Shown here: piece after piece, positions 219-28,652 of the stretch
Numbering within the stretch: position 1 is the first letter of the stretch
How the letters are laid out: the number at the start of each line of letters is the position of its first letter
Origin: Sorangium cellulosum
Lineage (GTDB): Bacteria; Myxococcota_A; Polyangia; Polyangiales; Polyangiaceae
NCBI GenBank assembly: GCA_020720045.1
Contig: DYPH01000046.1
Location: 1-40,090, forward strand
Direction of reading: 5' to 3'
Length of the DNA: 40,090 bases
Notes under the pieces: model-generated
Told to the model about the DNA's origin: nothing
Database searches by the model: none
What the model saw: the letters and a program-made list of their open reading frames with translations, nothing else
Translations under genes and position numbers: made by a program

Positions 219-3200
219 CTAGCGAAGCGACGGGATCGGGAGGAAGGCGTCCAGGAAGCGTTCCGGGCGGGCGATGCGCTGGGCAGACACCGCAAGCTCG
301 GCGCGCTCGACGCCGGCCCAGTCGCCGGAACGCCATGCGATCGCGCGTTCGATGGCGAAGCGGTAGCTTCCGAGCTTCGCCTCATCGAGCGTTCCGAGGA
401 TCTGTTCCGCGAAGGAATTCTCACTCCCGTCATTTCGCCCCACGGCACGTGCGTACGCGAAGGCCGCCGCAAGGCCGGTCGCCCAGGGGACATTCTCGCC
501 GCGGAGAGCGGCGATCGCGGCGAGAACGGTCGCGTCGTCGCCAACAGCAAGGCCGACCCGACCGCGCGTTTCCGCAGCAAGAATGCGGTTCGGCCGAAGC
601 TTATCAAGGCCGGACCCTTCGTAGCGGGCATCGGTCTCGCGGAGGAGCGCCTGCGCACTTGAAACGTCCCCCTCGTAGAGGAAGGAGATGCAGCGACTCC
701 ATGCACTCTGCAAGTGTTGGAGGTGGAATCCGTCGAGGGCCCACGAAGCGGTCGCTTCTTCGGCGTCGCGACGGGCACCGACCGGGTCGTCCCGGAAAAG
801 GTGGACGAGGTTCGGCACCCCGACGCGGAGTGCGGTCTCGGCGAACTTGTCACCGATGGCGCGCGCGGCCAAACGCGCACGCTCAACTGCATCTTCCAAG
901 CGAGCGAATTCGCCGAAATATCCGAAGGCCCAAAGCTCATTCTGGCGAACGGTACCGATCTCCCAGTGGGTGCCGACGTTGTGCTTCTCGAGTTCGAGGA
1001 GCGCCGGCACGGCACGCAGTGCGACCTGATCCCAGTGGCCGCGGACCGCCTGCGACATGCATCGAGCGGTGCTGATCCACGCCGCCGAGTAGGCGTCACC
1101 GTGTTGGGCGACGAGGCGATCGGCCTCGTCAAGGAGCCCGTCGCCGTCGCGTTCGCCTTCTTCGCCCCGCGTGGAGAGGAAGATCGCTTCCATGCCGAGG
1201 GCGCGGATCAGGCGCTTCGGTTCGCCGGCATCGAGCGAGAGCCGAAGATTCTCTGCATGATACACAAATCCGCGAAGTTGATCGGACATCAGGAAACCGC
1301 ACGCCGCGGCCCAGGCGGTATCGATCCGCTCAAGGGCACCGAGTTCAATCGCTTCTTCCGTGCGCAGTCGATACGCCCGCCCACGCAGCGCGAGGCGGCC
1401 GCGGGAGAAGAGAAACATCGGCACCTTGAGAAAGGGGCGCACAAGCGGAAGACCGACGTCGTCGAGGGCCCCATTGAGCTGGCGCTCCCCGTCATCAATG
1501 TATCCTGCACGCAAAAGCGTTTCTGCGGCGCGGCGCCGGAGAACACGCCCACGACGGCCTCCATGCACGGTGGCGGCGCGGAGGAAGAGGTCGGCCGCTT
1601 CGCGAGCGCGGCCGCCGTTTGCAAGCGCAGTGGCGAGAGAGACAAGCAATTCCGCCGTGGAACGCCCTTCGGCCTCCGCACGCCGCAGCAGGTATCGATA
1701 GGCGTTCGCGGCGCGGTCGAAGGCGAGCGCACGCTCGGCCCCCTCCGCGAGCCGAATCGCGAGCGGCCGGGCCCGCGCGTGATCCTCGGCGCCGGCGAAA
1801 TGGAAAAAAAGCGCATCGTCGTCGACCGGTTCGCGGCTTGCGAACGCTTCGCCGAAGCGACGGTGGAGGCGTCGGCGGGCTTCGTCGTCAAGGCGACTCC
1901 GCACCGCCTCGCGAACTTTGCCGTGGTAGGGCTCGACGGGGTCGGTCGCGCGAAGACCATCGAGCTTCACCAGACGCCCGAGTTTCATGCGCTTTACGTG
2001 CTTGAAGGCAATCGACGGATCGACGCCAGCCACCTGGGCGATGAGCGGTTGCGGGAGCGGCTTAATCGCCAGGGAAAGCGCTTCAAGCATGCGGCGCGCA
2101 TCGTCTTCGAGAGAGTCGACGCGGGCGAGCAAGGCTTCGACGAGGCGGTGCTCGCCGGAGGTTCCGGCGGTGGCGAGGCGCGACGAACGGAGGAGTTCGT
2201 CCAGCAAAAACGGGTGTCCGGAGGAAGCCTCGACGATGGCGTCGACGTCGGCGTCGGGATGGGCGCCCCGCGCGACTGCCGCCTCGACGAAGGCCAAGCA
2301 TTCGGCGCGTGGGAGCGGGCCCACGACGACGACCTCGGGAGATACATCTGCAAAAACGCGAGAATCTGGGCGCTCACGTGCAGACACGACGACGAAGAGG
2401 CCGATCGGAGTTGGTCGGCGGAGCAGGGCAGCGAGGAGGCCGCGGCTGTCGTCGTCGGCCCATTGGAAGTCATCAAAAGCGAGCACGACGGGCACTTCAC
2501 GGGCGATCCGGGCGAAGAGCTCTCGGGCCTGGGCAAACGCCTCACGACGGCGTTCGATAGGGTCGACGGGCCTCGTCGGTTCTTCGAGATCGATGCGTTC
2601 CAAGAGCGGAACAAGCACCGGAAAGCTCTCGGCGAGCGTCCAGGCAGAGCCGGTCAAAAAGCGCGCGACGTCTTCGGCGACGAACCGGTCGAGCCATTGT
2701 GCGATCTGCGCAAAGATCCGATCAAAGGCATTGAAGGGGACCGCTTCATCGGGATGACAGCGACCTGCGAGAACGAGTGGTGCCGGGCGACGCGCCGAAA
2801 GCTGGTCGCGAAACATATTGAGAATATGGGACTTTCCGATCCCTGACTCCCCCTCAAGCAGCACGATCGGCGTCGGCTGGCGCTCGCCGCGTTCACTACG
2901 CGGCGGTGGCGATGAGGGGCGGTGAGAATCGGCATCGAGCTCGCTTGTCGACGTCGCTGCCGGTGGAAGCACATTCCGAAGAATGCGCTCGCGCTCCGCG
3001 CGCACCGCGCCGAAAGCTGTGTAGAGCACATCCATCTCCCGCTGGCGACCGACGAAGATCTCCTCATCGCTCGGCGCGATGGGGGCGCTCCCTAGCGATG
3101 GCGGGAACAGACTGAGCCCCGCCTCGAGAACGGTGAGGATCGATTCGGCATCGGGCCGGGCCTCCGGCGTCGGCGAAAGCAGAGCCATCGCGAGATCGAT

Positions 3201-4118
3201 AAGGTCGTCGGGGGCGTCGGCGGCGAACTCGACCCGTAGGCGGGGCTTGCCTCGACGCTTGGCGGCGAGGACGTCTTGAAGCGTCCCCTCGAAGGGGTCG
3301 CGCCCAGCAAGGACTTGGTAGAGCAAGATCCCGACGGCGTAGAAATCGGACGCGGCCGTGGCGCGACGCCCGGCGGCGTGCTCGGGGGCGATCGTGAGCG
3401 GAGTGCCAGCCATCCGCCCTTGGCGGCGGGCGGGGTCGCTGTCAACAGCAATGCCGAAGTCGATCAGGACGAGGCGATCGCGGTCGGTTACGAGCACATT
3501 GCTCGATTTGACGTCCCGATGGATCTTCCCGGCGTCGTGGAGATACCGAAGCGCTCGAACCAATTGAATGAGGAGGCGGCGCAGGCGCTTCGGGTCGCAA
3601 CGTTCGGCGAAAGGTACCGGGTGAAAAAGTTCGACGGGGCTCGGCCGCCCGTGCTCGTCTGCGCGACTAAGGGGCGGAAGGGCGAGCGTTTGACTGCCAC
3701 AAATGAGATTTGAAAAAGAGTCGGGGCGAGTGGGAGTGTTTCGCCCCGACTGAAAGCGATCTTCCGGCGGCGAGGTGCGGGCGATCGCCTGCAAGAACTC
3801 TTCGCCACGGACGAGCTCCATGGTGAAGTACCAAAGGTCATTTTCGACGAAAAGCTCTCCGAGAGAAACGAGATTTTCGTGGGCCAGGTCCTGGCAACGC
3901 CTAAATTCGCGTTTGAATTCCTCGAGAGCTCCCGCACTACGACCTGCGAGGGTCTTTAGTGCGACCGCCCCGCCAGTCTCGGCGTCATGGGCTTCGTAGA
4001 CAGTCCCCATGCCCCCGGCGCCGAGGCGACGGAGAATGCGGAACCGCCCGAGCGTCCGTGGCGAGGAAGAATCGGCTCCGAAGAACCGCGGATCGAACTC
4101 GGATGACTCCATGTTCAT
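219..4118 (-). CDS. Ser/Thr protein kinase fused to a STAND/AAA_16 NTPase and a TPR-like C-terminal region (PknK-like), about 1300 aa
   Basis: ORF 219..4262 on the minus strand. Hanks kinase motifs are present (GAGGMGTVYEA, HRDVKSSNVLV, DFGIA, APE). Downstream lies a Walker A (GESGIGKS) and a Walker B-like hhhhDDFQWADD. A long Ala/Leu/Arg-rich helical repeat region follows. The first in-frame ATG that leaves about 27 aa before the kinase core is at 4118 (MNMESSEF). The ORF stays open upstream to 4262. Confidence 0.85.
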   Translation of the reverse strand: MNMESSEFDPRFFGADSSSPRTLGRFRILRRLGAGGMGTVYEAHDAETGGAVALKTLAGRSAGALEEFKREFRRCQDLAHENLVSLGELFVENDLWYFTMELVRGEEFLQAIARTSPPEDRFQSGRNTPTRPDSFSNLICGSQTLALPPLSRADEHGRPSPVELFHPVPFAERCDPKRLRRLLIQLVRALRYLHDAGKIHRDVKSSNVLVTDRDRLVLIDFGIAVDSDPARRQGRMAGTPLTIAPEHAAGRRATAASDFYAVGILLYQVLAGRDPFEGTLQDVLAAKRRGKPRLRVEFAADAPDDLIDLAMALLSPTPEARPDAESILTVLEAGLSLFPPSLGSAPIAPSDEEIFVGRQREMDVLYTAFGAVRAERERILRNVLPPAATSTSELDADSHRPSSPPPRSERGERQPTPIVLLEGESGIGKSHILNMFRDQLSARRPAPLVLAGRCHPDEAVPFNAFDRIFAQIAQWLDRFVAEDVARFLTGSAWTLAESFPVLVPLLERIDLEEPTRPVDPIERRREAFAQARELFARIAREVPVVLAFDDFQWADDDSRGLLAALLRRPTPIGLFVVVSARERPDSRVFADVSPEVVVVGPLPRAECLAFVEAAVARGAHPDADVDAIVEASSGHPFLLDELLRSSRLATAGTSGEHRLVEALLARVDSLEDDARRMLEALSLAIKPLPQPLIAQVAGVDPSIAFKHVKRMKLGRLVKLDGLRATDPVEPYHGKVREAVRSRLDDEARRRLHRRFGEAFASREPVDDDALFFHFAGAEDHARARPLAIRLAEGAERALAFDRAANAYRYLLRRAEAEGRSTAELLVSLATALANGGRAREAADLFLRAATVHGGRRGRVLRRRAAETLLRAGYIDDGERQLNGALDDVGLPLVRPFLKVPMFLFSRGRLALRGRAYRLRTEEAIELGALERIDTAWAAACGFLMSDQLRGFVYHAENLRLSLDAGEPKRLIRALGMEAIFLSTRGEEGERDGDGLLDEADRLVAQHGDAYSAAWISTARCMSQAVRGHWDQVALRAVPALLELEKHNVGTHWEIGTVRQNELWAFGYFGEFARLEDAVERARLAARAIGDKFAETALRVGVPNLVHLFRDDPVGARRDAEEATASWALDGFHLQHLQSAWSRCISFLYEGDVSSAQALLRETDARYEGSGLDKLRPNRILAAETRGRVGLAVGDDATVLAAIAALRGENVPWATGLAAAFAYARAVGRNDGSENSFAEQILGTLDEAKLGSYRFAIERAIAWRSGDWAGVERAELAVSAQRIARPERFLDAFLPIPSLR

Positions 4119-4153
4119 GGGCGTTCCGATGACTCCATGTTCATGAGCATTCC
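4102..4153. repeat. 26-bp tandem direct duplication (24/26 identical) spanning the kinase start codon region
   Basis: gatgactccatgttcatgggcgttcc (4102-4127) is followed directly by gatgactccatgttcatgagcattcc (4128-4153). This is read directly from the sequence. Confidence 0.85.
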
Positions 4154-4277
4154 TAGGTCGGTCGACGTCATCGGGAGAGCTTGGCGCGCCCCCCCCTCGG
4201 CATCGACCGCAAAGCACCAAGATGTTCGGCTGACTTGCCCAAGGGCGTGGCGACAGCGCCACGATTCAACCGGAAGG

Positions 4278-4967
4278 GTGAGTTTACACCAAAAATATTT
4301 TGCGATAGCTGAAATAAACGGACCGCTCGCAGGACTCCCCTGTGAAGCCGATGAATTCCCCCTCACTGCTGCTCCTTCCAGCGCGTGCCACCGCCCCGCC
4401 GTCGGCCGAGCCAACCGCGGTAGCCCCCATGGCGTTGGCGAATCGGTACACGCGGTAGTCGCCCTCCGTCCACTGCTTCGCGCAGTCGTCGCAAAGACCC
4501 TCGGCCGCCCGCTCGCCGATTCCTTCGTCGACGAAGCGTTGCAAGAGGCGATGACGGAAGTCCTCGCTGCCCTCCCCTCGCGCCGCGGCGGCGACGATGA
4601 CAGCCGTGCGCTGCGGAGTTTCGTCGTCGCTATCGCCGCGAATTGCTCCCGAAACGCCATCCGAGGCTTCCAGCGCCGCCGCGCCGAGAGCCCCCTCGAC
4701 GAGCCGAGCAGCGACCCTACTCTCGGTGCACTTGTCGGCCCCCCCTTGGGCGAGGCACTGGAAGCGCGCTCCGACCTGCGCGCAATCCAGGAACGGATCG
4801 CTCAGCTCCCCGAGGGGCAACGCAGAGCATTCATTGGTTTTTTTCTCGAAGAGAAGAGCTACGAAACGCTCGCAGCCGAGTTCGCCGTCCCCATTGGGAC
4901 GGTCGCCACCTGGATCTTTCGCGCAAAGAGCGCGGTCGCGTCCGTTGCGCCGAAGGACCATCGATGA
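4278..4967 (+). CDS. ECF (group IV) sigma-70 family RNA polymerase sigma factor; start uncertain
   Basis: Frame of ORF 4137..4967. A region 2-like segment (HAVVALRPLLRAVVAKTLGRPLADSFVDEALQEAMTEVLAAL ... ALRSFVVAIAANCSRNAIR) and a region 4 HTH (LPEGQRRAFIGFFLEEKSYETLAAEFAVPIGTVATWIFRAKSAV) are present. No canonical in-frame start lies within about 30 codons of region 2. GTG 4278 and ATG 4137 are the only upstream options. The stop overlaps the next ATG (ATGA). Confidence 0.7.
   Translation: MSLHQKYFAIAEINGPLAGLPCEADEFPLTAAPSSACHRPAVGRANRGSPHGVGESVHAVVALRPLLRAVVAKTLGRPLADSFVDEALQEAMTEVLAALPSRRGGDDDSRALRSFVVAIAANCSRNAIRGFQRRRAESPLDEPSSDPTLGALVGPPLGEALEARSDLRAIQERIAQLPEGQRRAFIGFFLEEKSYETLAAEFAVPIGTVATWIFRAKSAVASVAPKDHR
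4282..4320 (+). promoter_or_regulatory. AT-rich island in the kinase/ECF divergent intergenic region; candidate promoter for the ECF operon
   Basis: tttacaccaaaaatattttgcgatagctgaaataaacgg in a roughly 70% GC background. TTTACA is a 5/6 match to a -35 hexamer. No convincing -10 element was found. Confidence 0.3.
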
Positions 4968-5431
4968 AAGCGCCCCTGCCCCACCTGTTTTCCGGCGAAC
5001 ACCTTTCCGAGTTCGGCCTCTCCGTCGCTGCCGATGGCGAAGTCACCCACCTCAGCGCGGAAGCGCAGGAGCACCTCGCGCGCTGCCCGAGCTGCGAGCT
5101 TCAGGTCGCTACCAAAGCGCTCGAAGTGCTCGAATTACCTACAGACGTACTTGCGAACGCGGCGCTGCCACCCTTCCAACGATCCCCGTCGGCGCTGCGC
5201 GCGCTCGTCCGCCCGATCTTTGCCGCATTTGCCATCGGCGGCCTTGGACTCGCTTTGCGCGTTGCGACCCTCGACCGCGCCGCGCTCCGCGAGACGGCGC
5301 GAACCCTTCGCGCCTTTGCCCATGCGGCCCCGAGCGGTCAGCCGCTCTTGTCGCTCTTCGTCGCCGTTTGCGCCACGGCGCTCGCGATCGCCATCATTCG
5401 TCGTTTGCCCGCCCCCCAGGAGTCCCGATGA
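4964..5431 (+). CDS. Anti-sigma factor, zinc-finger (ZAS-like, HxxxCxxC) N-terminal domain with one TM helix, 155 aa
   Basis: ATG 4964 overlaps the sigma stop. Motif EHLARCPSCE is present. Hydrophobic stretches IFAAFAIGGLGLALRVA and LLSLFVAVCATALAIAIIRRL are present. Its position directly after the ECF sigma supports the call. Confidence 0.7.
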   Translation: MKAPLPHLFSGEHLSEFGLSVAADGEVTHLSAEAQEHLARCPSCELQVATKALEVLELPTDVLANAALPPFQRSPSALRALVRPIFAAFAIGGLGLALRVATLDRAALRETARTLRAFAHAAPSGQPLLSLFVAVCATALAIAIIRRLPAPQESR

Positions 5432-6639
5432 ACCGCTATTCTTTCGCAACTTTCGTCGGCTTGTCTGCACTCCTCATGATCGCTCGCCCGGCGCTTGCCG
5501 ACGGCGGACACACCTTCCAGACCGAAGGGCGCTGGGAGGACGACCGCCCCGTCACTCTCGAAATTGAAGCCAAAAGCCGCCACGAAGCCCTCGGTGCGCT
5601 GGCGGCGGCGACCGGTCTCCAGATTGTGGCCCCGGCCGAAGAGGCGCCCCATCCGATCAGTCTCCACGTGAAGGAAATCGCCCCGAAAGCGGCACTGGCC
5701 CTTCTGTTTTTAGAGGATGGCGCATTTGTTGCCACCCGCGACGGCGATCGAATCGCGGTCCGCCGGGAAGCAGCAAGCTCCGCCAAGATTGAGGCGCCTC
5801 CTCGCGAACAGAGCGGCGACAACGACGCGACTCTCTTTGGAATTACTCACCTCGCCAAAGGCGTTCACTACGACGATGTTTCCGTCGTTGGCGGCATCTC
5901 GCGCATTGAAGCGACCATCGACGGCGACTTGGAAGTAACCGGCGGCATTGTGACGCTCCTCCCCGGGTCGTCCGTGCATGGCGACATCCATGTGACCGGC
6001 GGCAAACTGGAAATCGAGGACGGGGTGCGCATCGACGGAGACGTCGACAACGTGGGGGGAATCGTCAACAAGCCGGACGATATACGTGTGCATTACACAA
6101 ATAACACCGGCGGCGTCGAAGGGGCTCGTCCGGGGCGGCTCCACCGCATCGCCGACGCGATTTCCTCGGCGGCGACGCGGTTTGCGGCGCTCTTCCTCGC
6201 CGGCGTCCTTGCCCTCGGCCTCGCGCGGCGCCGGGCTGATGGCATCCGGGTCGCGATCGCCACCCAGTTTGGCCGGTCGCTGGGGCTGGGGCTCGTTGCC
6301 GCCCTTGGAGCCGCGACGGCGATCGTCGTGCTCGCAGTGACCATCGTCGGAATTCCGCTGGCAGCGGCGGCATTTGGCGTCGCCATGGCGGCCGCTTACG
6401 TCGGGGCAGCCCTCACGCTCGCTACGGCCGGCGAGGCGCTGCTCGCGCACCGCATCCCCAGCCCGTGGAAGCGCCTCGCCGTTGTCTGCGCCGCCTTCGC
6501 GGTCCTCGGAATGATCCCGACGATCGGCGGGATTCTCGAAGCGGTTGTGTTTCTCGTCGGTTTCGGCGCCGTCGTAACCACGCGGGGGGGCGTCAGCAGC
6601 GCCGACGCGCCCATCCCGGCTAGCCCCTACCGCTCGTGA
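5428..6639 (+). CDS. Exported protein with an STN-like domain, a bactofilin-like beta-helix and a C-terminal 4-TM anchor, 403 aa
   Basis: ATG 5428 overlaps the anti-sigma stop (ATGA). Signal peptide MNRYSFATFVGLSALLMIARPALADG is present. The segment EALGALAAATGLQIVAPAE...ISLHVKEIAPKAALALLFLEDGAFVATRDGDRIAV resembles STN (secretin/TonB N-terminal) domains. Gly/Val-rich repeats (DLEVTGGIVTLLPGSSVHGDIHVTGGKLEIEDGVRIDGDVDNVGGIV) are bactofilin-like. Four hydrophobic helices lie at the C-terminus. Confidence 0.8.
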   Translation: MNRYSFATFVGLSALLMIARPALADGGHTFQTEGRWEDDRPVTLEIEAKSRHEALGALAAATGLQIVAPAEEAPHPISLHVKEIAPKAALALLFLEDGAFVATRDGDRIAVRREAASSAKIEAPPREQSGDNDATLFGITHLAKGVHYDDVSVVGGISRIEATIDGDLEVTGGIVTLLPGSSVHGDIHVTGGKLEIEDGVRIDGDVDNVGGIVNKPDDIRVHYTNNTGGVEGARPGRLHRIADAISSAATRFAALFLAGVLALGLARRRADGIRVAIATQFGRSLGLGLVAALGAATAIVVLAVTIVGIPLAAAAFGVAMAAAYVGAALTLATAGEALLAHRIPSPWKRLAVVCAAFAVLGMIPTIGGILEAVVFLVGFGAVVTTRGGVSSADAPIPASPYRS

Positions 6640-7528
6640 CCGTCACCGCGAGGTGAGGAATCGCGCGGCCACGTTCCGAAGTTTTCTCAAAGGGGACTCC
6701 TTGCGCAAGCAATAGGAGTTCCTTTTCTTTCTTGCGGACGTCGACGAGAAAACGGCCGGGGAGAAAGATCGGCTTCTTAAAGCGGGCATGAAGAGACAAA
6801 TCGCTGCTGGGGAGGTCGTCGATCGCCTCGCCAAGGGTCCGCGCAAGCGTCCAAAGTCCGTGGGCGATGGCTCGTTTGAACCCGAACGGTTTTGCCAAGA
6901 GAGCGTGCTGATGAATCGGGTTTCGATCGGAGGCAATCGCGCCATAACGTCGGCCGATGTTCTCGGGGACGGTAACGACCGCCGAGCGCAAAAGATCGCC
7001 AAAGGACGTGGTTTCGCCGTCGACGGTAGGTTCCTTGCCGGCGGTCTCGCGACCGGCGCTCTTGGAACCGCCAGCACCCGACCGGGCAAGAATCGTCGCC
7101 GTCCATGTGCCTTTGGGGACGCCAGCGACGGAGACGTCGGTGCGCAAATCAAAGAGCCACCCCTCGGAGGAATCCGGTCGCCACGGCCTGCAATTCCCAG
7201 CGGAGGCGGCAAGTTCAAGCACCGCCGACGCCGGGATCGGGGCGAGGAGCTCGACGCGATTTTCGATGTGAACGATGCCGAGCGCGCCGAAGGGGAACTG
7301 GCGGTCGGCAAAAAGATCGAGGTGGAGCTTGGCCGCCGCAATTTGGGGCACCAGGAGCGGGAGCGTCGAACCCGCCGGAAGGCCGCAGATCGCGGCATAG
7401 GCGGCGATGCGTTCTGCGTCCCAGCGGGCTTCGCCGGTTGCTGCCAGCTGCGGAAATTCCGCCGCCGCCCGCAGACCAGGACGCTTGGCAAAAAACAGGT
7501 CGAGATGCTTTTTCATTGCCGGATTCAT
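6620..7528 (-). CDS. MaoC-like (R)-specific enoyl-CoA hydratase/dehydratase, double hot-dog fold
   Basis: ORF 6620..7576. Start taken at M17 (MNPAMKKHLDLFF), which has a GGAGGT Shine-Dalgarno immediately upstream. The MaoC signature YGAIASDRNPIHQHALLAKPFGFKRAIAHGLWTLA is present. Its ATG overlaps the stop of the upstream gene. Confidence 0.85.
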   Translation of the reverse strand: MNPAMKKHLDLFFAKRPGLRAAAEFPQLAATGEARWDAERIAAYAAICGLPAGSTLPLLVPQIAAAKLHLDLFADRQFPFGALGIVHIENRVELLAPIPASAVLELAASAGNCRPWRPDSSEGWLFDLRTDVSVAGVPKGTWTATILARSGAGGSKSAGRETAGKEPTVDGETTSFGDLLRSAVVTVPENIGRRYGAIASDRNPIHQHALLAKPFGFKRAIAHGLWTLARTLGEAIDDLPSSDLSLHARFKKPIFLPGRFLVDVRKKEKELLLLAQGVPFEKTSERGRAIPHLAVTVTSGRG

Positions 7529-20798: not shown

Positions 20799-20812
20799 GG
20801 TCGGCCTTCAGC

Positions 20813-21562
20813 TCAGTCGATCAGGTAGAGGAGCGGGAAAAGATAGATCCAGACGAGGTCGACGAGGTGCCAATAGAGGGCCGCGATGTCGACGCCTGCG
20901 TAGTATTCCTTGGAGAAGTCGCCGCGCTCATTGCGGCGCCAAATCCAGGTAAGGACACCGATCCCGACGAGGATATGGATCGCATGGATCCCCGTCGCCA
21001 TGAAGTAGATCGAGTAGAAGATATGTGCATTCTCCGGGAGCGCCGGAGATCCTTCAACGAGGTGATGAAGGTGCGGGTGGTAGAAGTGCCCGGGGAGCAG
21101 ACCCGCCTGGAACTTGTGGTTGTACTCGTAGCTCTTGACGCCCAAGAAGATGAGCGCGCACAAGATCGTCAAGAGCAGGTACCGGCTCGTTCCCGCCTTG
21201 CGACCGAGCTGCGCTTCGCGAACAGCAAGTGCCGCGGTGAGGCTTGAGACGAGAAGGACGATCGTATTTCCGGCACCAATGGGGCGGTCGAGTTGGTGCG
21301 CGGCCGCGGAGAACATCTCCGGATACCAGCTGCGGAAGATCCCGTACGCGACGAAGATGCCGCTAAAGAACAGGAGCTCCTGCACGAGGAACGCCCACAT
21401 GCCCACCTTAGCCGCATCAAACTGCTGCTGGGGCGTATCGAAATGGTGCGCCAGGTAGGAGGGATGGGCGTGGTCGTTGTGACCGTGCTCGTCGTGGCCG
21501 TGGTCGTCGTGACCTTCGGGCACTTCCGTGGTGGCGTCGGCGGTTGCCGCTTCGCTGCTCAT
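20813..21562 (-). CDS. ctaE: Cytochrome c oxidase subunit III
   Basis: AHHFDTPQQQFDAAKVGMWAFLVQELLFFSGIFVAY and the following TM pattern are typical of CoxC. The ORF-track start at 21637 is a TTG. The first ATG is 21562 with GGAG upstream. Confidence 0.9.
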   Translation of the reverse strand: MSSEAATADATTEVPEGHDDHGHDEHGHNDHAHPSYLAHHFDTPQQQFDAAKVGMWAFLVQELLFFSGIFVAYGIFRSWYPEMFSAAAHQLDRPIGAGNTIVLLVSSLTAALAVREAQLGRKAGTSRYLLLTILCALIFLGVKSYEYNHKFQAGLLPGHFYHPHLHHLVEGSPALPENAHIFYSIYFMATGIHAIHILVGIGVLTWIWRRNERGDFSKEYYAGVDIAALYWHLVDLVWIYLFPLLYLID

Positions 21563-21728
21563 CGTAGAGACTCCAGGGATTTCTCGGTTCAGAGCCGACT
21601 CCCGGTACTTTGACGCCCGCCGAGTAGACTCGGTCAAGGGCGGCGGGGCGTCTTGTCACGCCATACCTGGGTTCGGAAAAAGAAGGAAGGGGCTGTGGTC
21701 AGCGATGCCGGCCACAGCCTCGGGCCAT

Positions 21729-23417
21729 TCAGTCGTCGGCATCGGCGGGGCGTTCGCCCGGCGCGTACCCTTCGTCGAGTTCCGCCTCAGTCGCGAGGTG
21801 GTAGTCGTAGGGGCCACGGGTGATGACCGGCTGGTCGACGAAGTTGTGGAAGGGAATCGGCGTCGGCGTCTGCCACTCGAGAGCGGCGGAACCCCAAGGA
21901 TTGCGCGGCGCATCCTTCCCCTGCTGGAGGGACTGAACGAACATCACGAGCATCACGAGAAAGCCGAGACCGAGAATCCAGGAGCCAATCGTGGAGACTT
22001 GGTGGAGCGACTGGAACTCGGGAAGGTAGTCGTAATAGCGGCGCGGCATGCCACGCGAGCCGAGAACGAACTGGGAGAGGAAGGTGACGTTGAAGCCGAT
22101 GAAGACGAGCGCAAAAGCGACGCGCGCCATGCCTTCGTTGTACATCTTGCCGGTGAACTTCGGCCACCAGTAGTGGAGCCCGCCGACGAACGCGATGACG
22201 GTACCGCCGACCATGACGTAGTGGAAGTGCGCGACGACGAAGTAGGTGTCGTGGAGGTGCACGTCGACGGCGAGCATCGCGAGGAAGAGCCCCGTGAGAC
22301 CGCCAATCGTGAACAAGAAGATGAAGCCGAGCGCGTAGAGCATCGGAGACTTCAACGAGATCGAGCCCTTGTAGAGCGTCGTGACCCAGTTGAAGACCTT
22401 CACGCCCGACGGGATACCGACGAGGAAGGTGAGGGCCGAGAAGACCATCGTCGAGTACTCGCTCATGCCAGCGACGAACATGTGGTGACCCCACACGAGG
22501 AAGCCGAGGAGCGCGAGACCGAGGGACGACATCGCGATGAAGAAGTATCCGAACGGAGCGCGACGGCTAAACGTGCAGATAATCTCGGAGATGACGCCCA
22601 TGCCCGGGACAATCATGATGTAAACGGCCGGGTGGCTGTAAAACCAGAAGAAGTGCTGGAACAGGACCGGGTCGCCGCCCATCGAAGGGTCGAAGATCCC
22701 GAGGCCGAAGGCGCGCTCAAAGATGAGCAGGAAGAGCGTGATCGCGAGGACCGGGGTCGCGAGGACCTGAATGATCGACGTCGCGTAGAGCGCCCAGATG
22801 AAGAGCGGTAGGCGCTTCCAGCTCATGCCCGGCGCACGCATGGTGTGCACGGTGGCGATGAAGTTGACGCCGGTGAGGATCGAGCTGAACCCGAGGATGA
22901 AGGCCGCCGTGAGCATCGGGATGACGCTCGTGTTGGTGAACTTCGAGGAATACGGAGTGTAGAACGTCCACCCGGTGTCCACGCCGCCGTGGATCATCGT
23001 GTAGAGGCCGAAGACGGCACCGAGCAACCAAACGTAGAAGCTCGTGAGGTTCAGTCGCGGGAACGCGACATCTTTCGTACCGAGCTGAATCGGCAAAAAG
23101 ATATTCCCAAGCGCGCCGGGCACGGCCGGAATGATGAACAAGAAGACCATCACGATGCCGTGCATCGAGAAGACCTTGTTGTACTGCTCCGCCGTCATGA
23201 TGGTACGGCCGGCAGTGAAGAGTTCGAGGCGAACCAACAGCGCGAGGATGCCGCCAAGAAGGAACGCAGCGAGTACCCCGATGAGGTACATGATGCCGAT
23301 CCGCTTGTGATCAAGCGTGAAGAGCCAGGACTTCAGGCCCTTCTCCGCGAGATAACTCTCGTGCGGGTCGTGCGCCTCGGTTTTTCCGCCGAGGCCTGGC
23401 GTTGCTACCGTTGCCAT
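21729..23417 (-). CDS. ctaD: Cytochrome c oxidase subunit I (haem-copper oxidase catalytic subunit)
   Basis: Motifs [18 protein letters not shown]-like [27 protein letters not shown] are present. 562 aa with 12 or more TM helices. Confidence 0.95.
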
Positions 23418-23442
23418 GAGGTGGTTTCCCTGTCTCTTTCCG

Positions 23443-24447
23443 TCACTTCGTCGTCTTTAGGTAAGCAATGATCGCGTCGACCTGCTTTTCCGTAAAGACG
23501 AACGGGGGCATGTTGCCGTTTTCAAAGGTTTTTACGATCTTCGCTTGCGGGCGAAGGATCGATTCGCGCACGTAGTTCTCGTCCACTTTGACCTGCTCGC
23601 CAGTGGTGAGCGTTTCAGTCCGTCCCCAAACCCCTTTAAAGGTCGGTCCGGTTGCCGCGCTTCCATCAACGCTGTGGCACGTGGTGCACCCCTTGCCCTT
23701 GTAGAGCTGCTCGCCCCAAAGCGCCGTGCCGTTCTCTTTGTCTTTGAGTTCGGCGGGGATGTCCTTGATTTTCTTGAGGTGCGCCTCGTATTCGGCCTCA
23801 GTCACGATCTTGATCTTCGAAAGCATCGAGAAGTGACCACCGGCCGTCGGGCCAGCGCCCGCGCCGCAGTACTCGGCGCAGAACACCTGGGCCTCACCAA
23901 GCCGGTTCGGCGTAAAGGCGAGTTGCGAGTACATACCGGGAACGACGTCCTTCTTCAGGCGGAAGGCCGGAACGAAATAGTCGTGAAGAACGTCGCTCGA
24001 CGACATGACCATCTTCACCGGCTTGTTGACCGGCAGATAGAGAGCGTCGCCGGACTCCGGCGTCCCATCTGGGTACTGGTAGCTCCAGTTCCAGCGGGCA
24101 CCACGCACGCGGATTTCGAGGGCATTATCGGCGGCCACCGCATTGCGGATGTACGCCGAATAGCTCACGTGGAACATCCAGACGATGAGGAGCACCGGCG
24201 GGACCGTCCAAGAGAGCTCGAGGGCCGTATTCTCCTGGGTGGGTGCCGCGGATACGCCCTTACGACGCCGGTATTTCCAGACAAAGTAGAGCGTCGCCGC
24301 GGTGATACCGACGGTGAATACGACGCTAAACCAGTAGATAAAATAATAGAGCCAGTCGATGGCGTCCGCCCCGGTGGACATGGCCACCGGGAGCTGGAGC
24401 GTCGAAGAGGCGGGCTCGTTTGCGTCGAGAAGCGGCTGCTGGAACAT
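23443..24447 (-). CDS. ctaC: Cytochrome c oxidase subunit II with fused C-terminal cytochrome c domain (caa3-type)
   Basis: Two N-terminal TM helices. The CuA site is FCAEYCG...GHFSM. The C-terminal CTTCHS haem c site has distal Met (NGNMPPF). M23 (ATG 24381) is an alternative start. Confidence 0.9.
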
Positions 24448-24468
24448 GGGACCTACGTGGGGTACCGG

Positions 24469-25368
24469 TCAGGCGGAGGGGCCGGAGTCTTCGGCCGGCG
24501 AGAGGGGGGTCGGGCTGAGAAGGCCGCCGGTTTTCCGACGCCGCTCCCGTAGCCAGAACAGGGCAAGAGTGCCACCAAGAAGTAACGCGGTGATGACACC
24601 GCCCAGCTTCATGACGTTTTTTGCGACGAGGACGTACTTGGATTGCTTCCCGTCGTACATGAAGCAGTAGAGAATGACCTGATCGATCGTGGAGATGTGG
24701 TTCCCCTTGGAGGCCTCGATAAGGCCGATCTTCAGGTCGTTCGGTGAGTATTCGAGCCCATAAAGGTAGCGGGCGAACTCACCGTTGGGGGCCACCAGCA
24801 TGATGGTGGCCGGGTGACCATACTGGGACGACGCTGCGTCGTACTGGTATTCGAGGCCGGCAGCATCGGCGGCGCGGTCGATGGAGACCTTGTCGCCGAT
24901 GAGAAAGTGCATTCCGGACGCAGGGCCGTCCCCACGACCGTATTTACTGAGAATTTCGTTCCGCTTTCGATTGGTGCGGCCGAGCTCTTCCTTCGGATCG
25001 ATCGAGAGCACGATGACGTCGTACTCTTTGCCGACCGTCCAATCGATCCCCTTGAGCCCCTTCACCGTCGCGTCGAGCACCATGCTGCATAGCATCGGGC
25101 AGGAGTGGTAGGCGAAAACGAGGACCGCCGGTTTCTTGCCGGAAAAGTAAGTGCCTAGCGTGACCGAAGCGCCCGTCTCATCGCGAAAGTTCGCGTCTTT
25201 CGGGAGGATTCCACCGAGGTGTTCTTTGACCCCGACATGCTCCAGCTTCGGACCCTCGGCCACCGGAGTTCCCGGATCCCGCGTGCGGTCGGTGTACTGG
25301 GCGCGCGCAAGAGCGGGCACGAGCAGTAGTGCGAGTGCAGCGAGGAGGGGGAAAATCCGGCGTAGCAT
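24469..25368 (-). CDS. SCO1/SenC family copper chaperone (thioredoxin fold, CxxxC)
   Basis: ORF 24469..25509. Start taken at MLRRIFPLLAALALLLVPALARA (signal/TM). FAYHSCPMLCS copper-binding CxxxC is present. The conserved H is downstream. Its position lies between ACIII and cox genes. Confidence 0.85.
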   Translation of the reverse strand: MLRRIFPLLAALALLLVPALARAQYTDRTRDPGTPVAEGPKLEHVGVKEHLGGILPKDANFRDETGASVTLGTYFSGKKPAVLVFAYHSCPMLCSMVLDATVKGLKGIDWTVGKEYDVIVLSIDPKEELGRTNRKRNEILSKYGRGDGPASGMHFLIGDKVSIDRAADAAGLEYQYDAASSQYGHPATIMLVAPNGEFARYLYGLEYSPNDLKIGLIEASKGNHISTIDQVILYCFMYDGKQSKYVLVAKNVMKLGGVITALLLGGTLALFWLRERRRKTGGLLSPTPLSPAEDSGPSA

Positions 25369-25375
25369 AGGGCGT

Positions 25376-25858
25376 TCAGTGACCGGGGGCGCCGGCGTCT
25401 GCGGTCGGGGGCTTAGAGCCGCCGTCTGCAGTCGGCGAGAGGGTGGTCGATCCATCGACGCCCGCGTCGCTCGTGGTCGGTACAACCGGGGCAGCGGGCG
25501 GCGCGGCAACGACCGGGGTGGCCGTGTCGAAAGTCTTCGGGAGCTGCGCCCAACCCTTCATCGCCCCGAGGTCGTCGGACGGTTGCGGAGCGATCACAAC
25601 GCCCGCTCCTTCGCGGCCGGCAGCGACGCGAGACATCGCCTGGTCGATGGGGATAGGTGCGTTATCAAGCGCCTTCTTCTCTTCTTCACGGAGCCGGATA
25701 AGCGCCTCGGGAGAAGCGAGCTTCTCCTGGGCAGACGCCTCCGCCATTGAGATGAAGTAGGAGTCGAAGACGAACTTGAGTGCGCCCAGGCTGATGACCG
25801 TGCCGAAAGCGACGATCAAGATGACGCGATTGCGGGTTCCGGATTTGTCGAAAGCCAT
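25376..25858 (-). CDS. Hypothetical single-pass membrane protein with Pro/Ala/Thr-rich C-terminal tail (160 aa)
   Basis: N-terminal TM VILIVAFGTVISLGALKFVF is present. It sits in the same orientation tightly between actF and sco. No recognisable motif. Confidence 0.55.
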   Translation of the reverse strand: MAFDKSGTRNRVILIVAFGTVISLGALKFVFDSYFISMAEASAQEKLASPEALIRLREEEKKALDNAPIPIDQAMSRVAAGREGAGVVIAPQPSDDLGAMKGWAQLPKTFDTATPVVAAPPAAPVVPTTSDAGVDGSTTLSPTADGGSKPPTADAGAPGH

Positions 25859-25867
25859 GATCGTGCC

Positions 25868-27298
25868 TCAGGCGTTGTGGAAGTGAATCGCACGCTGAAT
25901 GCGCGGATCCCCGACCGGGATAAGTGCGTGCTTGGTCATCCGGAAGAAGACGTAGGCGAAGTAGATGCCACCAACCGCCATCGGACAGGCGATATCAAGC
26001 CAGTGAAACTCAAACGAGTAGTGTTTGAAGTTCGGCATGACGAACCAGTACCAGTCGACAGCGTGCATCACGAGAAGCCAGGCGGCGCCAAGCTTGAGGC
26101 TCGGGAGTTTGCGCTTCACATTGCGTGAAAGGAGCAAGAAGAAGGGGACAACGAAGTGGAAGACCAGAAGGATGAGGCTAACGCCTGCCCAGGGACCGGC
26201 GCCAGCACCGGGCTCAGCGCTCGCATCCCAACGATAGTGGTAGTAGGTCGTCTCTTCCGGGAGACCGGCGTACCAGATCAAGAGGAACTGGCTGAAGCCG
26301 ATGTAGGCCCAGAAGACGTTGAAGCCGAACATCAACTTCCCGAGATCGTGGAAGTGCTCCACGTTCACGACGCTCTTGAGGTAGCCCGCGTCACGCAGGC
26401 TCATCGTGATGAGGATGATGACCGCGAGGCTGGCGACGGCAGCCGTCGAGAAGACGTATACGCCGAAAATCGTTGAAAACCAGGAGGGGTCGAGCGCCAT
26501 GACCCAGTCGAAGGCGCTGAACGTCAGGCTGAGCGCAAACGCCATCATCGCAAGCGGCGAGGCGGCCTGGGCCCGAAGGGTCAATCCGACTTCCTTCGAC
26601 TTGTCCTGGCGAACGGAGAGGTTGAAGAACATCGTGCCGAGGATGACCCAGGCGAGGATGTAGAAGACGGCACGGCCGTAGAAGAAGTTGAGGTTAAACC
26701 ACCCCTTCTTCTTGTCGAGGGTCTCGACGTGGGCGACGTGATTCGGGTCGTGCCCTTCGTGACCAGCGTGCTCGGCGGTTGCGCCATGCTCAGCTGCGAC
26801 GGCGTGCTCGGGAGCCGCACCGTGCTCTTTGGCAGCCTCTTTGGCTTCCGGCTTCGCTTCGCCGGCGGGGGCCGTGTGCTCTTCCGCGTAGGCCTGCGTC
26901 TCCACGAGGGAGGCGTGGCCGCCCGGGGTGCCAGCAACGGTCTCGTACCAGTCGAAATGCTTGATGTTGATGAGGATCGGGAGCGCGAGTACGGCCATCA
27001 CCGGGAGGCCGCTGGCGAGGAACTCGGCAACGCGACGGACGGTAACACTCCAGCCAGCCGACGTTAGGCGCTGGATGAGCACAAAGAAGAGTGCCCCCAG
27101 CGCGATCGTCAGAATGGTGAAGTAGCCGAAAATGTAGGAGTAAACGAACCGATGAGCGTTCTCCGCCGTCATCGCGCCGGCGACCGCCGTGAGGGCTCCG
27201 ACCGCGCCGATGAAGGCGGCAACTTTCCAGGCAGAACTCCAAGGGCCGCCTTCGCGGATCATGAAGTTCTTTTCGCTAATTTCGACGTTGGAAGCCAT
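25868..27298 (-). CDS. actF: Alternative complex III subunit ActF (NrfD/PsrC-like polytopic membrane protein)
   Basis: 476 aa. Multiple TM helices. The NrfD-like fold is paralogous to the ActC gene at 28653..30107. Gene order follows A-B-C-D-E-F. Confidence 0.85.
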   Translation of the reverse strand: MASNVEISEKNFMIREGGPWSSAWKVAAFIGAVGALTAVAGAMTAENAHRFVYSYIFGYFTILTIALGALFFVLIQRLTSAGWSVTVRRVAEFLASGLPVMAVLALPILINIKHFDWYETVAGTPGGHASLVETQAYAEEHTAPAGEAKPEAKEAAKEHGAAPEHAVAAEHGATAEHAGHEGHDPNHVAHVETLDKKKGWFNLNFFYGRAVFYILAWVILGTMFFNLSVRQDKSKEVGLTLRAQAASPLAMMAFALSLTFSAFDWVMALDPSWFSTIFGVYVFSTAAVASLAVIILITMSLRDAGYLKSVVNVEHFHDLGKLMFGFNVFWAYIGFSQFLLIWYAGLPEETTYYHYRWDASAEPGAGAGPWAGVSLILLVFHFVVPFFLLLSRNVKRKLPSLKLGAAWLLVMHAVDWYWFVMPNFKHYSFEFHWLDIACPMAVGGIYFAYVFFRMTKHALIPVGDPRIQRAIHFHNA

Positions 27299-27312
27299 GT
27301 CGTGGTCCCGGA

Positions 27313-28086: not shown

Positions 28087-28649
28087 GGCGCGTCCTCCGA
28101 GACTTCGTCGTCTTTGTCGGCCACGAGTTCGATGTTCGTCGGATGGGTCGCCTCGAGGAGCTTCTTGGTCTTCTCGAGGTTGAACTTCGGGTCGCTGCTC
28201 TCCACGGAGATGAAGAACTTATCGTCCGTCGCCGACGCGAACCGGTCCGAGTTGAAGATCGGGTGGTGGTGACGGGGGAGCTGATTGAGACCAAACATCC
28301 CGAAGACTGCCGTCAGCGCGCTGAAAAGGATGGTGAGTTCGAAGAGAATCGGCACCATCGAAGGGATCGAAAACGCCGGCTTCCCGCCGATGATGAGCGG
28401 GTAGTCGACCCCGTTCATCCACCAAATCATCAGAAACCCGAGCGAAACCCCAGTGATACCGGCGGGGAGAACCAACCAACCGAGGCGGCTGTCAGGAAGT
28501 CCCATCGCTTGATCCATGCCGTGGACCGGGAACGGAGTGTGGGCGTCGAAAGCGGCGTACCCGGCGTCGCGGAGCTTTTCCGCGGCGTGAACACAGGCGC
28601 CGGCCGACTCGTATTCGGCAAGATAGAGCGTCAAAGTCTTATCGGACAT
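28083..28649 (-). CDS. actD: Alternative complex III subunit ActD
   Basis: 188 aa. A soluble N-domain is followed by TM helices (GWLVLPAGITGVSLGFLMIWWM, VPILFELTILFSALTAVFGMFGL). It lies between actC and actE. Confidence 0.8.
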   Translation of the reverse strand: MSDKTLTLYLAEYESAGACVHAAEKLRDAGYAAFDAHTPFPVHGMDQAMGLPDSRLGWLVLPAGITGVSLGFLMIWWMNGVDYPLIIGGKPAFSIPSMVPILFELTILFSALTAVFGMFGLNQLPRHHHPIFNSDRFASATDDKFFISVESSDPKFNLEKTKKLLEATHPTNIELVADKDDEVSEDAP

Positions 28650-28652
28650 AGG

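Follow-up and report, generated by a model that had tools for sequence, protein, structure and literature searches.

A putative three-component ECF sigma factor operon in Sorangium cellulosum containing an exported STN, beta-helix and DUF8173 membrane protein

The 40,090-nucleotide stretch of Sorangium cellulosum DNA analyzed here, referred to as the window, carries a three-gene ECF stress-signalling operon in which a sigma factor gene is followed by genes for a membrane-bound inhibitor and an exported membrane protein. Recurrence of this cassette across many phyla suggests that the third protein (gene 3) is an unrecognized partner of an ECF signalling class, and on balance we favor the reading that, within a three-component ECF operon, it serves in the periplasm as sensor or co-regulator for an anti-sigma factor that has no sensor of its own. 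Direct reading of the + strand gives three co-directional ORFs joined by ATGA overlaps at 4964 and 5428, exactly as a preliminary description of this DNA had proposed. At the sigma/anti-sigma junction, the ATG at 4964-4966 overlaps the TGA at 4965-4967 (ATGA 4964-4967), and at the anti-sigma/gene 3 junction the ATG at 5428-5430 overlaps the TGA at 5429-5431 (ATGA 5428-5431). Shine-Dalgarno-like sequences lie 5′ of both starts (AAGGA before 4964 and AGGAG before 5428), and the same 4-nt overlaps occur in the relatives L006, L089, L090, L091, and L093. The first gene (4351..4967, + strand) was assigned as an ECF sigma factor by its domain scores and by comparison with relatives. Sigma70_r4_2 (cut-off 25.7) reaches 48 bits in the Pfam scan and TIGR02937 (sigma70-ECF; cut-off 42.9) reaches 47.5, which supports the sigma assignment made in that description. 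Region 2 is divergent (Sigma70_r2 at 16.9 bits, cut-off 24), yet it aligns with region 2 of related sigma factors (alignment A2).

Gene 2 (4964..5431, + strand; 155 aa) is best read as a small class-I, ZAS-type anti-sigma factor from its translation, its H-x3-C-x2-C motif, and its position after the sigma gene, with sigma inhibition and zinc binding both putative. The cytoplasmic N-terminal domain contains H37-LAR-C41-PS-C44 (HLARCPSC; nt 5072-5095) with H13 located 24 residues upstream, and thus displays the ZAS ligand pattern of H-x3-C-x2-C preceded by a His or Cys about 24-26 residues before. This motif is kept in L006 (with H13 and H29), L009, and L007 and is also found in L010; across the family, sequence divergence prevents an alignment of the anti-sigma proteins. 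The ZAS-type assignment had been made in the preliminary description as well; motif and position favor it, but the zf-HC2 (PF13490) score of gene 2 is 13.7 bits, under the Pfam cut-off of 22.2. Genes in the same position do exceed that cut-off in L029 (26.3) and L037 (26.4), as does a fusion protein in L057 (31.1). Two membrane helices are predicted at about residues 78-103 and 127-148 with a loop of about 22 residues between them, and gene 2 has no periplasmic sensor domain. Since this short inter-helix loop is the only extracytoplasmic part of the protein, gene 2 should not be able to sense the periplasm itself.

The product of gene 3 begins with a predicted signal peptide (residues 1-24, 5428..5499, + strand) that ends in a cleavage-type motif, ALA before D, and is recognized from the sequence, the AF2 model (a helix at 4-18 and then a linker of low confidence), and alignment A6, in which the N-terminal hydrophobic segment is conserved; the peptide is presumably cleaved. 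On the same strand follow an STN or secretin-N0-like domain of beta-alpha-beta-beta-alpha-beta-beta order (residues 30-113, 5515..5766), a bactofilin-like beta-helix predicted to be periplasmic and membrane-adjacent (residues 133-214, 5824..6069), and the DUF8173 membrane domain (residues 237-386, 6136..6585). The last has five transmembrane helices oriented N-out/C-in and a hallmark T-x-x-G-I-P turn, and the protein closes with a cytoplasmic tail that extends to 6636, ends in PYRS, and is followed by the stop codon at 6637-6639. The STN-like and bactofilin-like folds, which had been proposed from the letters alone together with the membrane anchor, are supported by the structure model (pLDDT 85.5) and by family profiles. 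The window protein by itself gave no STN match (PF07660 / SM00965) at E ≤ 1 in the Pfam scan, and phmmer with its STN domain against PDB sequences returned no STN or secretin N0 domain and a sole chance-level match to CarD (E 0.76). The A6 family profile, on the other hand, matches PilQ N0 (4ar0) with E 1.1e-11 and PupA (2a02) with E 3e-3, 17 of 35 family members match PF07660 (best E 5.2e-10), and the window domain scores 70.4 bits against a profile built without its own lineage. Its fold superposes on the signalling domains of PupA, PupB, FpvA, FoxA, and FecA and on the FecR-like anti-sigma 4m0h. The best profile match and the shared fold tie this domain to the secretin N0 domains of PilQ, GspD, and InvG, although gene 3 lacks a secretin pore domain and is predicted to be an inner-membrane rather than an outer-membrane protein. 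For Bactofilin (PF04519), gene 3 scores 17.1 bits, under the 27.9 cut-off that its relatives in L057 (43.8) and L021 (58.5) pass, and its model shows the compact right-handed beta-helix of that family. Bactofilins such as BacA of Caulobacter and the Thermus bactofilin are cytoplasmic, polymer-forming cytoskeletal proteins, whereas the beta-helix of gene 3 is flanked by the STN and membrane domains. With the signal peptide before it and the first membrane helix after it, this beta-helix is predicted to lie in the periplasm, a location that speaks against the role of a classical bactofilin.

The DUF8173 assignment comes from a precomputed PF26514 match for the exact gene 3 protein; PF26514 was never among the models returned when we scanned the window protein and its relatives against Pfam-A. 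A membrane-domain HMM built with the lineage left out scores 118.8 bits on gene 3. The family alignment contains no invariant catalytic-type residues in this domain, which fits a scaffold or interaction role. DUF4097, which the preliminary description had listed as a domain to look for, was not found in the cassette proteins. DUF8173 is unmentioned in the literature searched, and all family members are named "hypothetical protein" in their sources.

Conservation of the gene order extends far beyond the Myxococcota and is central to our reading of gene 3. Among 70 informative bacterial genome loci, 67 have an ECF sigma gene on the same strand and 0.5-1.8 kb upstream of the DUF8173 homologue, and these gene neighborhoods show the order of sigma factor, small membrane protein, and DUF8173 protein to be more than chance. 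Myxococcota, Methylomirabilota/Rokubacteria, Acidobacteriota, Gemmatimonadota, WOR-3, Zixibacteria, a Bifidobacteriaceae MAG, and a Syntrophomonadaceae MAG all carry it. Elsewhere the genes on either side of the cassette are unrelated, and two metagenome loci (L002 and L003) keep the order amid otherwise unrelated surroundings. The middle gene in these loci typically encodes 130-200 aa with 2-3 membrane segments. In L057, a single ORF that overlaps the sigma stop codon combines zf-HC2, membrane helices, the Bactofilin domain, and DUF8173, and in-frame fusions of anti-sigma and DUF8173 of about 615 aa occur in at least 12 Acidobacteriota loci. The topology of these fusions (N-in, a two-helix hairpin, then the former signal peptide) agrees with that of the split genes. 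Synteny and fusion together indicate functional linkage and leave the direction of control aside. The STN domain is present in just 28 of 80 genome loci, so the conserved core consists of the beta-helix and the membrane domain, and the occurrence of five archaeal homologues without any sigma factor indicates that this core is not intrinsically a sigma regulator. The DUF8173 family itself comprises 16,835 representative clusters at E ≤ 1e-3. HMM support for the gene 3 domains, through family profiles and structure prediction, and a conserved gene order, the two results on which the earlier interpretation had been staked, were therefore both obtained. That interpretation holds for the sigma factor, the motif-bearing gene 2, the domains of gene 3, and the order of the genes; its kinase input, DUF4097, the novelty claimed for the STN domain, and an intact sigma gene starting at 4137 fall away.

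We propose that the anti-sigma factor would hold the sigma factor (start at 4351) at the inner membrane and that exported gene 3 would provide the sensor missing from it. The five-helix DUF8173 domain could pack against the anti-sigma hairpin within the membrane, and the rigid bactofilin-like beta-helix would act as a stalk that projects the STN/N0-type interaction domain into the periplasm. Events on that side of the membrane, at the STN/beta-helix module, might then act on the complex of DUF8173 and anti-sigma factor, whose conformation would shift or whose anti-sigma subunit would become accessible to proteolysis; in either case the sigma factor would be released. In sigma signalling, the STN domain is an established module for contacts between proteins (PMC11637429). 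This proposal draws on the domain identities, the consistent topology, the 4-nt overlaps that couple translation, the conserved gene order, and the natural occurrence of fusions between anti-sigma factor and DUF8173. We infer from them a contact between gene 3 and the anti-sigma factor, as well as a direction of control (gene 3 as co-inhibitor or activator) and a signal. Trans-envelope signalling by the cassette would be speculation; neither the cassette nor the 40-kb window around it codes for an outer-membrane partner. To our knowledge, few bacterial signalling devices are as abundant as ECF sigma factors, and only in a minority of their groups have the signal and the sensing component been identified. 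A very large uncharacterized family that is tied to ECF sigma/anti-sigma pairs by gene order across phyla and by natural fusions offers a concrete candidate for the missing sensor of anti-sigma factors without a periplasmic domain, and places the STN interaction domain, familiar from secretins, TonB transducers, and FecR-type regulators, on an inner-membrane scaffold of a new kind.

Known systems provide partial parallels. In SigM-YhdL-YhdK of Bacillus subtilis, an extra multi-pass membrane protein is needed for proper sigma control. The operon order of sigma, anti-sigma, and additional multi-pass membrane protein is alike, a likeness by description in which homology is not expected, but YhdK is small and has no extracytoplasmic domains, and YhdL has an extracytoplasmic region of its own. 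CnrH-CnrY-CnrX of Cupriavidus metallidurans (ECF291) is an ECF system of three components whose periplasmic sensor is a separate protein anchored in the membrane. It shares with our cassette an ECF sigma factor, a small anti-sigma factor nearly without a periplasmic part, and a distinct membrane-anchored sensor (a role putative for gene 3) in the same operon, so that sensing is separated from sigma binding. The two have no sequence or fold kinship, however; CnrX senses metal and is a helical protein with a single membrane pass, gene 3 combines STN, beta-helix, and five membrane helices, and the gene order is cnrYXH rather than sigma, anti-sigma, gene 3. CnrY-like anti-sigma factors are mentioned in a published account (PMC7826278). 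Anti-sigma factors of the FecR/PupR/FoxR type (structures 6OVK and 6OVM) have a membrane-proximal periplasmic beta-solenoid and a distal STN domain, and the STN domains of FoxR and PupR bind the transducer STN (PMC11637429). Sigma signalling thus already has precedents for an STN domain that is not part of a TonB receptor, which removes the novelty suggested for it at this locus. Gene 3 resembles these proteins in having a membrane-proximal beta-solenoid and a distal STN-like domain with a putative tie to anti-sigma function. It differs in that the module sits on a separate polypeptide, runs in reverse N-to-C order, and ends in the C-terminal five-helix DUF8173 anchor, and in that the beta-helix is bactofilin-like with no TonB-dependent transducer nearby. 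Neither gene 2 nor gene 3 has a Pfam match to FecR (PF04773) or DUF4974, and no TonB-dependent receptor or secretin was found among the large ORFs scanned in the 40-kb window. The cassette was rejected as a FecI-FecR-FecA system for want of a FecR-type anti-sigma factor and an adjacent STN-bearing TonB-dependent transducer.

Other readings of gene 3 must be weighed against the sensor or co-regulator role. It could be an output of the pathway, either an effector of envelope stress or a structural protein of the envelope, co-transcribed with the sigma/anti-sigma pair as the first regulon member; its beta-helix/STN module would then act on the cell wall or an outer-membrane complex. Archaeal and a few bacterial homologues without a sigma factor (L021, L027, L041, L067, L088, L032, and L073), the variable N-terminal domain of the family, and a family size consistent with a general envelope role all point this way. 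Covalent fusion of the anti-sigma factor to the beta-helix/DUF8173 module in L057 and the Acidobacteriota loci would be surprising, though, if gene 3 were no more than a member of the regulon. The lack of a sensor domain in the anti-sigma factor, the tight overlap, and the fixed place of gene 3 directly after it also speak against an output role, which we judge unlikely. Somewhat less likely still is a disguised FecIRA-type trans-envelope system, in which genes 2 and 3 form a split FecR and the gene 3 STN docks on that of a TonB-dependent transducer or secretin encoded elsewhere. The membrane, beta-solenoid, and STN geometry of FoxR and PupR (PMC11637429) and the structural match to transducer domains and 4m0h speak for it. 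Against it, FecR, DUF4974, and TonB-receptor domains were found neither in the cassette nor among the large ORFs scanned in the window, the STN is closer in sequence to secretin N0 than to transducer domains, most family members have no STN, and the beta-helix is bactofilin-like, not FecR-like. A broader idea, which we regard as doubtful, is that DUF8173 proteins might constitute a large unrecognized ECF co-regulator class, a detachable periplasmic half of the anti-sigma factor, with the STN subfamily as a split, permuted FecR whose stalk-borne STN would dock by STN-STN beta-sheet pairing on a secretin or TonB-dependent transducer elsewhere. If true, an outer-membrane machine would be coupled to an ECF sigma factor without a FecR-family protein.

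Whether the cassette is functional in this particular genome depends on the sigma gene. Six relatives (L006, L009, L089, L090, L091, and L093) start their sigma factor at the equivalent of ATG 4351 (MNSPS...), and 4137 was rejected as the sigma start for this reason. The protein has 205 aa in five relatives of at least 90% identity and 213 aa in L006, where the upstream ORF ends after 47 codons. In the window, the frame of ATG 4351 (MNSPSLLLL...) is not that of the sigma body and terminates at TAG 4456-4458, leaving no intact ORF from the conserved start; the sigma body, which runs from about 4429 to its stop codon at 4965-4967, is read in the same frame as the annotated ORF of 276 aa. At 4424-4428 the window has a run of five C, where five relatives have six (blastn against L009; run counts in L009 and L089-L093), and adding one C restores a 205-aa protein colinear with that of L009 and identical at its N-terminus. 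A second homopolymer difference, C8 in the window versus C7 at 4188-4195, is the only reason that the ORF from ATG 4137 is open in the sigma frame. The short C-run and the out-of-frame ATG therefore mark the sigma gene as frameshifted and the 276-aa ORF from 4137 as a gene-caller artefact, which overturns the preliminary view of an intact sigma gene and a cassette beginning at 4137, with the three ORFs and their overlaps retained. By this comparison, the window sigma gene carries an apparent 1-nt deletion, either a frameshift or a sequencing error, and the module may be inactive here or the base mis-sequenced. The C5/C8 sequence recurs in L008 (JGI sample), so it is not a random assembler error, but it may be a read-level homopolymer error. 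The cassette could then be a decaying remnant, with a sigma pseudogene and with anti-sigma and gene 3 no longer a signalling unit. The shortened run, its recurrence in the JGI sample, and the lack of a canonical in-frame start between 4351 and the sigma-2 region favor this view (ATG 4137/4143 and GTG 4278 lie in conserved non-coding DNA). Yet a single homopolymer-length change is a typical sequencing or assembly error, a second one lies close by, the remaining operon is intact at about 93% DNA identity to L009 with no further lesion, and the window, L001, and L008 may share the same reads. Decay is thus a possibility to be taken seriously, if not one that we favor; either way, the annotation needs correction at the sigma start and for the homopolymer frameshift.

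The divergent neighbor of the operon, outside the module, encodes a 1299-aa Ser/Thr kinase-STAND (AAA_16) protein (219..4118, − strand; Pkinase E 3.4e-40, AAA_16 E 7.5e-19). A second input through this kinase-STAND-TPR protein had been suggested previously; the kinase would phosphorylate the sigma factor, the anti-sigma factor, or gene 3, as in ECF43. The adjacency of the two genes, the highly conserved intergenic DNA that they share in the window, L006, L009, and L089-L093, and the existence of kinase-linked ECF groups (PMC7826278) favor this reading. Such groups typically have no co-encoded anti-sigma factor (PMC7826278), whereas this operon has one. By tblastn, the kinase lies beside the cassette only in the close relatives L006, L008, L009, L089-L091, and probably L093, and it is absent from all other loci, including those of the other Myxococcota (L010, L012-L014, L016, L019, L022, L058, and L063). 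The ECF43 combination of a conserved kinase neighbor and no anti-sigma factor is accordingly not seen, and we consider a kinase input very unlikely. The divergent intergenic/regulatory region between kinase and sigma operon (4119..4350, 232 nt), delimited by alignments with L006 and L009, contains the C8 run and has no sigma-70 consensus match and no Rfam match. Its length equals the kinase-to-sigma spacing in L006 and L089-L093, and its sequence is near-identical to that of L006 and L009, more so than the sigma N-terminal coding region at about 4420-4460. An AT-rich box at about 4279-4320, TGAGTTTACACCAAAAATATTTTGCGATAGCTGAAATAAAC, is strongly conserved.

Three co-directional open reading frames lie on the forward strand of the window and encode an ECF sigma factor (gene 1), its putative anti-sigma factor (gene 2), and a predicted exported membrane protein with STN-like, bactofilin-like, and DUF8173 domains (gene 3). 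The preliminary description had joined them by ATGA overlaps at 4964 and 5428, and both overlaps are present in the sequence: ATG 4964-4966 overlaps TGA 4965-4967 at the gene 1/gene 2 junction, and ATG 5428-5430 overlaps TGA 5429-5431 at the gene 2/gene 3 junction. The start codon of gene 2 is preceded at 7-11 nt by AAGGA, and that of gene 3 at 6-10 nt by AGGAG. Together, the overlaps and these Shine-Dalgarno-like sequences make translational coupling of genes 2 and 3 plausible. Identical 4-nt overlaps are found at both junctions in five of the loci collected from relatives and homologues (L006, L089, L090, L091, and L093). Among more distant cassettes, the overlap between the sigma gene and the middle gene is kept only in L002, and the second junction of L002 and both junctions of L003 are short gaps of 28-60 nt. 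Within the species collection, a Myxococcales MAG (L009) comes closest, with 95% amino acid identity in gene 3. The last 20 nt of gene 3 (6620-6639) are also shared, tail to tail, with a convergent MaoC-dehydratase gene (6620-7528, reverse strand), an arrangement called likewise in L006 and L089-L093.

The gene order extends far beyond close relatives. The order sigma factor, small membrane protein, and DUF8173 protein was found in four metagenome neighborhoods with unrelated contexts, and a genome scan with A4, a gene 3 family alignment dominated by one clade, returned 80 loci with one genome taken per species. Open reading frames were called in these loci, and an iterated ECF HMM and three domain HMMs were built for scoring. 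The synteny predicted in the preliminary description was borne out, with a same-strand ECF sigma factor upstream in 67 of the 70 bacterial loci that had enough upstream DNA, ending 0.5-1.8 kb before the first recognized gene 3 domain; the bacterial exceptions are L032, L056, and L073. The taxa covered include Myxococcota, Methylomirabilota/Rokubacteria, Acidobacteriota, Gemmatimonadota, WOR-3, and Zixibacteria, along with one Bifidobacteriaceae MAG and one Syntrophomonadaceae MAG. Five archaeal loci from Halobacteria and Methanosarcinaceae (L021 at 4644-5876, L027, L041, L067 at 1956-3032, and L088) have the bactofilin-like beta-helix and DUF8173 module and no sigma factor. As to the archaeal neighbors, an Lrp/AsnC regulator is upstream in L021, and an amine oxidase and Maf are beside the module in L067. 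The STN-type N-terminal domain was recognized in only 28 of the 80 loci.

In some genomes the second and third genes are a single reading frame. In L057, one ORF (3828-5456) that overlaps the sigma stop codon contains zf-HC2 (31.1 bits), membrane helices, Bactofilin (43.8 bits), and the DUF8173 membrane domain. In Acidobacteriota, at least 12 loci lack a separate middle ORF and instead have the two parts fused in frame, at a length of about 615 aa. Such single ORFs directly follow the ECF sigma gene in L057, L036 (4206-6053), L044, L055, L061, L066, L069, L071, L074, L075, and L079-L081. They join an anti-sigma-like N-terminus and membrane helices to the beta-helix/DUF8173 module. The fusion topology is that of the two split proteins end to end.

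Gene 1 required a correction. The ORF that begins at 4137 is recognizable as an ECF sigma factor by Sigma70_r4_2 (48 bits, cutoff 25.7) and TIGR02937 (47.5, cutoff 42.9), with sigma region 2 at 16.9 bits against a cutoff of 24. The preliminary description took 4137 as the start; relatives instead start at the equivalent of 4351. In L006, whose sigma factor and gene 3 are 72% and 75% identical to those of the window, the sigma factor begins MNSPS 232 nt from the kinase start, and the counterpart of the 4137 ORF is closed after 47 codons. The corresponding ATG at 4351 in the window is out of frame with the sigma body and is stopped by TAG 4456-4458. Comparison with L009 by blastn (93% DNA identity) revealed a one-base difference, CCCCC in the window at 4424-4428 versus CCCCCC in L009. 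L089, L090, L091, and L093, four contigs that come from other samples, likewise have the six-C run and a called 205-aa sigma factor. The window shares its five-C run with L001, which is its own NCBI copy, and with L008, a JGI contig. Adding one C to the window gives a 205-aa protein colinear with the L009 sigma factor and with an identical N-terminus.

The five-C run may be a genuine frameshift specific to this strain, or it may be a homopolymer error in the reads. A second C-run in the intergenic region (4188-4195) has eight residues in the window, L001, and L008 and seven in L009 and L089-L093, and this second length difference in the frameshift lineage hints at read-level homopolymer errors. 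The eight-C run also places ATG 4137 in the sigma frame and so generates an artefactual 276-aa ORF. The ATG itself is spurious, created by a 26-nt tandem duplication (4102-4153, two copies, 92% match, unit GATGACTCCATGTTCATGAGCATTCC) that spans the start codon of the divergent kinase gene (ATG 4118, reverse strand) and is present in L006 and L009 too. A real long sigma isoform with an N-terminal extension was considered and rejected, since the extension crosses conserved noncoding DNA and is closed in L006 and since five close relatives use the 205-aa form. The annotated start of the sigma gene in this genome is in need of correction.

The gene 2 product (155 aa) contains H13, H29, and H37-LAR-C41-PS-C44, a ZAS-type layout in which 24 residues separate H13 from H37. 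Its score against Pfam zf-HC2 is 13.7 bits, below the 22.2 cutoff. L006, L007, and L009 conserve the motif, and it occurs in L010 as well; the corresponding genes of the distant cassettes L002 and L003 lack it. In L029 (26.3 bits) and L037 (26.4 bits), the middle gene is clearly zf-HC2. A jackhmmer search with the anti-sigma factor reached only close relatives and a weak L010 match, and homology across the family is therefore not demonstrable by sequence, for which these proteins are too divergent. Two hydrophobic helices (about 78-103 and 127-148) are connected by a loop of about 22 residues, and the protein would therefore have essentially no periplasmic domain.

Scanned directly against Pfam and NCBIfam, none of the three window proteins matched STN or DUF4097, the latter a candidate raised in the preliminary description, and gene 3 scored 17.1 bits against Bactofilin, under the 27.9 cutoff. 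With these results and the subthreshold zf-HC2 score, family-level evidence was needed. Gene 3 has a precomputed database match to PF26514 (DUF8173), and when 1.84 billion representatives were searched with a profile, 16,835 matched at E<=1e-3 and 1,344 at E<=1e-30. Many of these matches span the beta-helix and membrane parts only. Among 35 diverse full-length members (alignment A6), STN was detected in 17 (best E 5.2e-10), Bactofilin in 22 (best E 3.5e-7), and DotD in 7. Against solved structures, the A6 profile matched the PilQ N0 domain (4ar0, E 1.1e-11), other PilQ entries (1e-9 to 5e-7), and the PupA signaling domain (E 3e-3). HMMs built without the window lineage scored gene 3 at 70.4 bits for the N-terminal domain, 66.5 for the beta-helix, and 118.8 for the membrane domain.

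A first AlphaFold2 model from A4 had a pLDDT of 30-50 in the N-terminal domain and an uninformative Foldseek search, and it was replaced by a model from A6 with a mean pLDDT of 85.5. The latter predicts a signal-peptide helix (residues 4-18), a beta-alpha-beta-beta-alpha-beta-beta domain (30-113), a disordered linker (117-129), a beta-helix (133-214), and helices spanning residues 237-386. Family profiles and predicted structure thus uphold the domain reading proposed earlier for a protein that is, on its own, below the STN and Bactofilin cutoffs. By the positive-inside rule, the STN domain and beta-helix would be periplasmic and the C-terminus cytoplasmic. The invariant residues of the membrane domain in A6 are G, P, T, and R only, including a T-x-x-G-I-P turn, which argues against an enzymatic role. 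A cytoplasmic C-terminal (G/S)P(Y/F)R motif (window 6625-6636, residues 400-403) is conserved in roughly half of the 35 members and absent from the 392-aa Methylomirabilota clade. L063 (3972-5897) apparently has two tandem STN-like domains (HMM, residues 79-166 and 180-258) ahead of the beta-helix.

Sigma factor, anti-sigma factor, and gene 3 are linked, and the best-supported reading makes the cassette an ECF module of three components, where gene 3 would supply periplasmic sensing or co-regulation to a sensor-less anti-sigma factor. Gene 3 may act through contact of its membrane domain with the anti-sigma hairpin; we infer this contact, as well as the signal and the direction in which control would run. 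The closest functional analogues of the cassette are CnrYXH and SigM-YhdL-YhdK. Contrary to what the preliminary description implied, there is precedent for STN domains outside TonB receptors: the periplasmic parts of FoxR and PupR already combine a beta-solenoid and STN in a membrane/beta-solenoid/STN arrangement (PMC11637429). Gene 3 shares this geometry; unlike FoxR/PupR, however, the cassette has no FecR homology, the chain order of gene 3 is reversed, and there is no transducer in the vicinity. Among the large ORFs scanned across the 40-kb window, none encodes a TonB-dependent receptor or secretin. Literature searches returned nothing relevant on DUF8173, ECF/anti-sigma pairs with bactofilin, bactofilin with a sigma factor, or this cassette; the main text of the ECF reclassification paper mentions neither bactofilin nor STN, and source annotations of the family members all read "hypothetical protein".

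The divergent kinase-STAND protein (Pkinase and AAA_16) had been proposed as a second input. That role is not supported, as tblastn places the kinase next to the cassette only in close relatives. ECF groups with a linked kinase are usually without an anti-sigma factor (PMC7826278). Between the two transcription units, an AT-rich box (4279-4320, TGAGTTTACACCAAAAATATTTTGCGATAGCTGAAATAAAC) stands out in a 64% GC genome and is almost identical in L006 and L009, though the flanking coding DNA has diverged; it is probably a promoter or operator for the sigma operon, the kinase gene, or both. A sigma-70 promoter scan of the intergenic region had no match, inspection by eye of regions upstream of sigma in other Myxococcota found no shared ECF-type motif, and scans for Rfam families and tRNAs returned nothing. 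Genes elsewhere in the window encode ArgS, Lon, an M20 peptidase, cytochrome oxidase subunits, SCO1, NrfD and Fer4 proteins, and SPFH, DJ-1, and GNAT proteins. A respiratory cluster (20800-33500, reverse strand), unconnected with the cassette, comprises COX3, COX1, a COX2-cytochrome c fusion, SCO1, a cytochrome c, NrfD, and a large Fer4 protein (alternative-complex-III-like).
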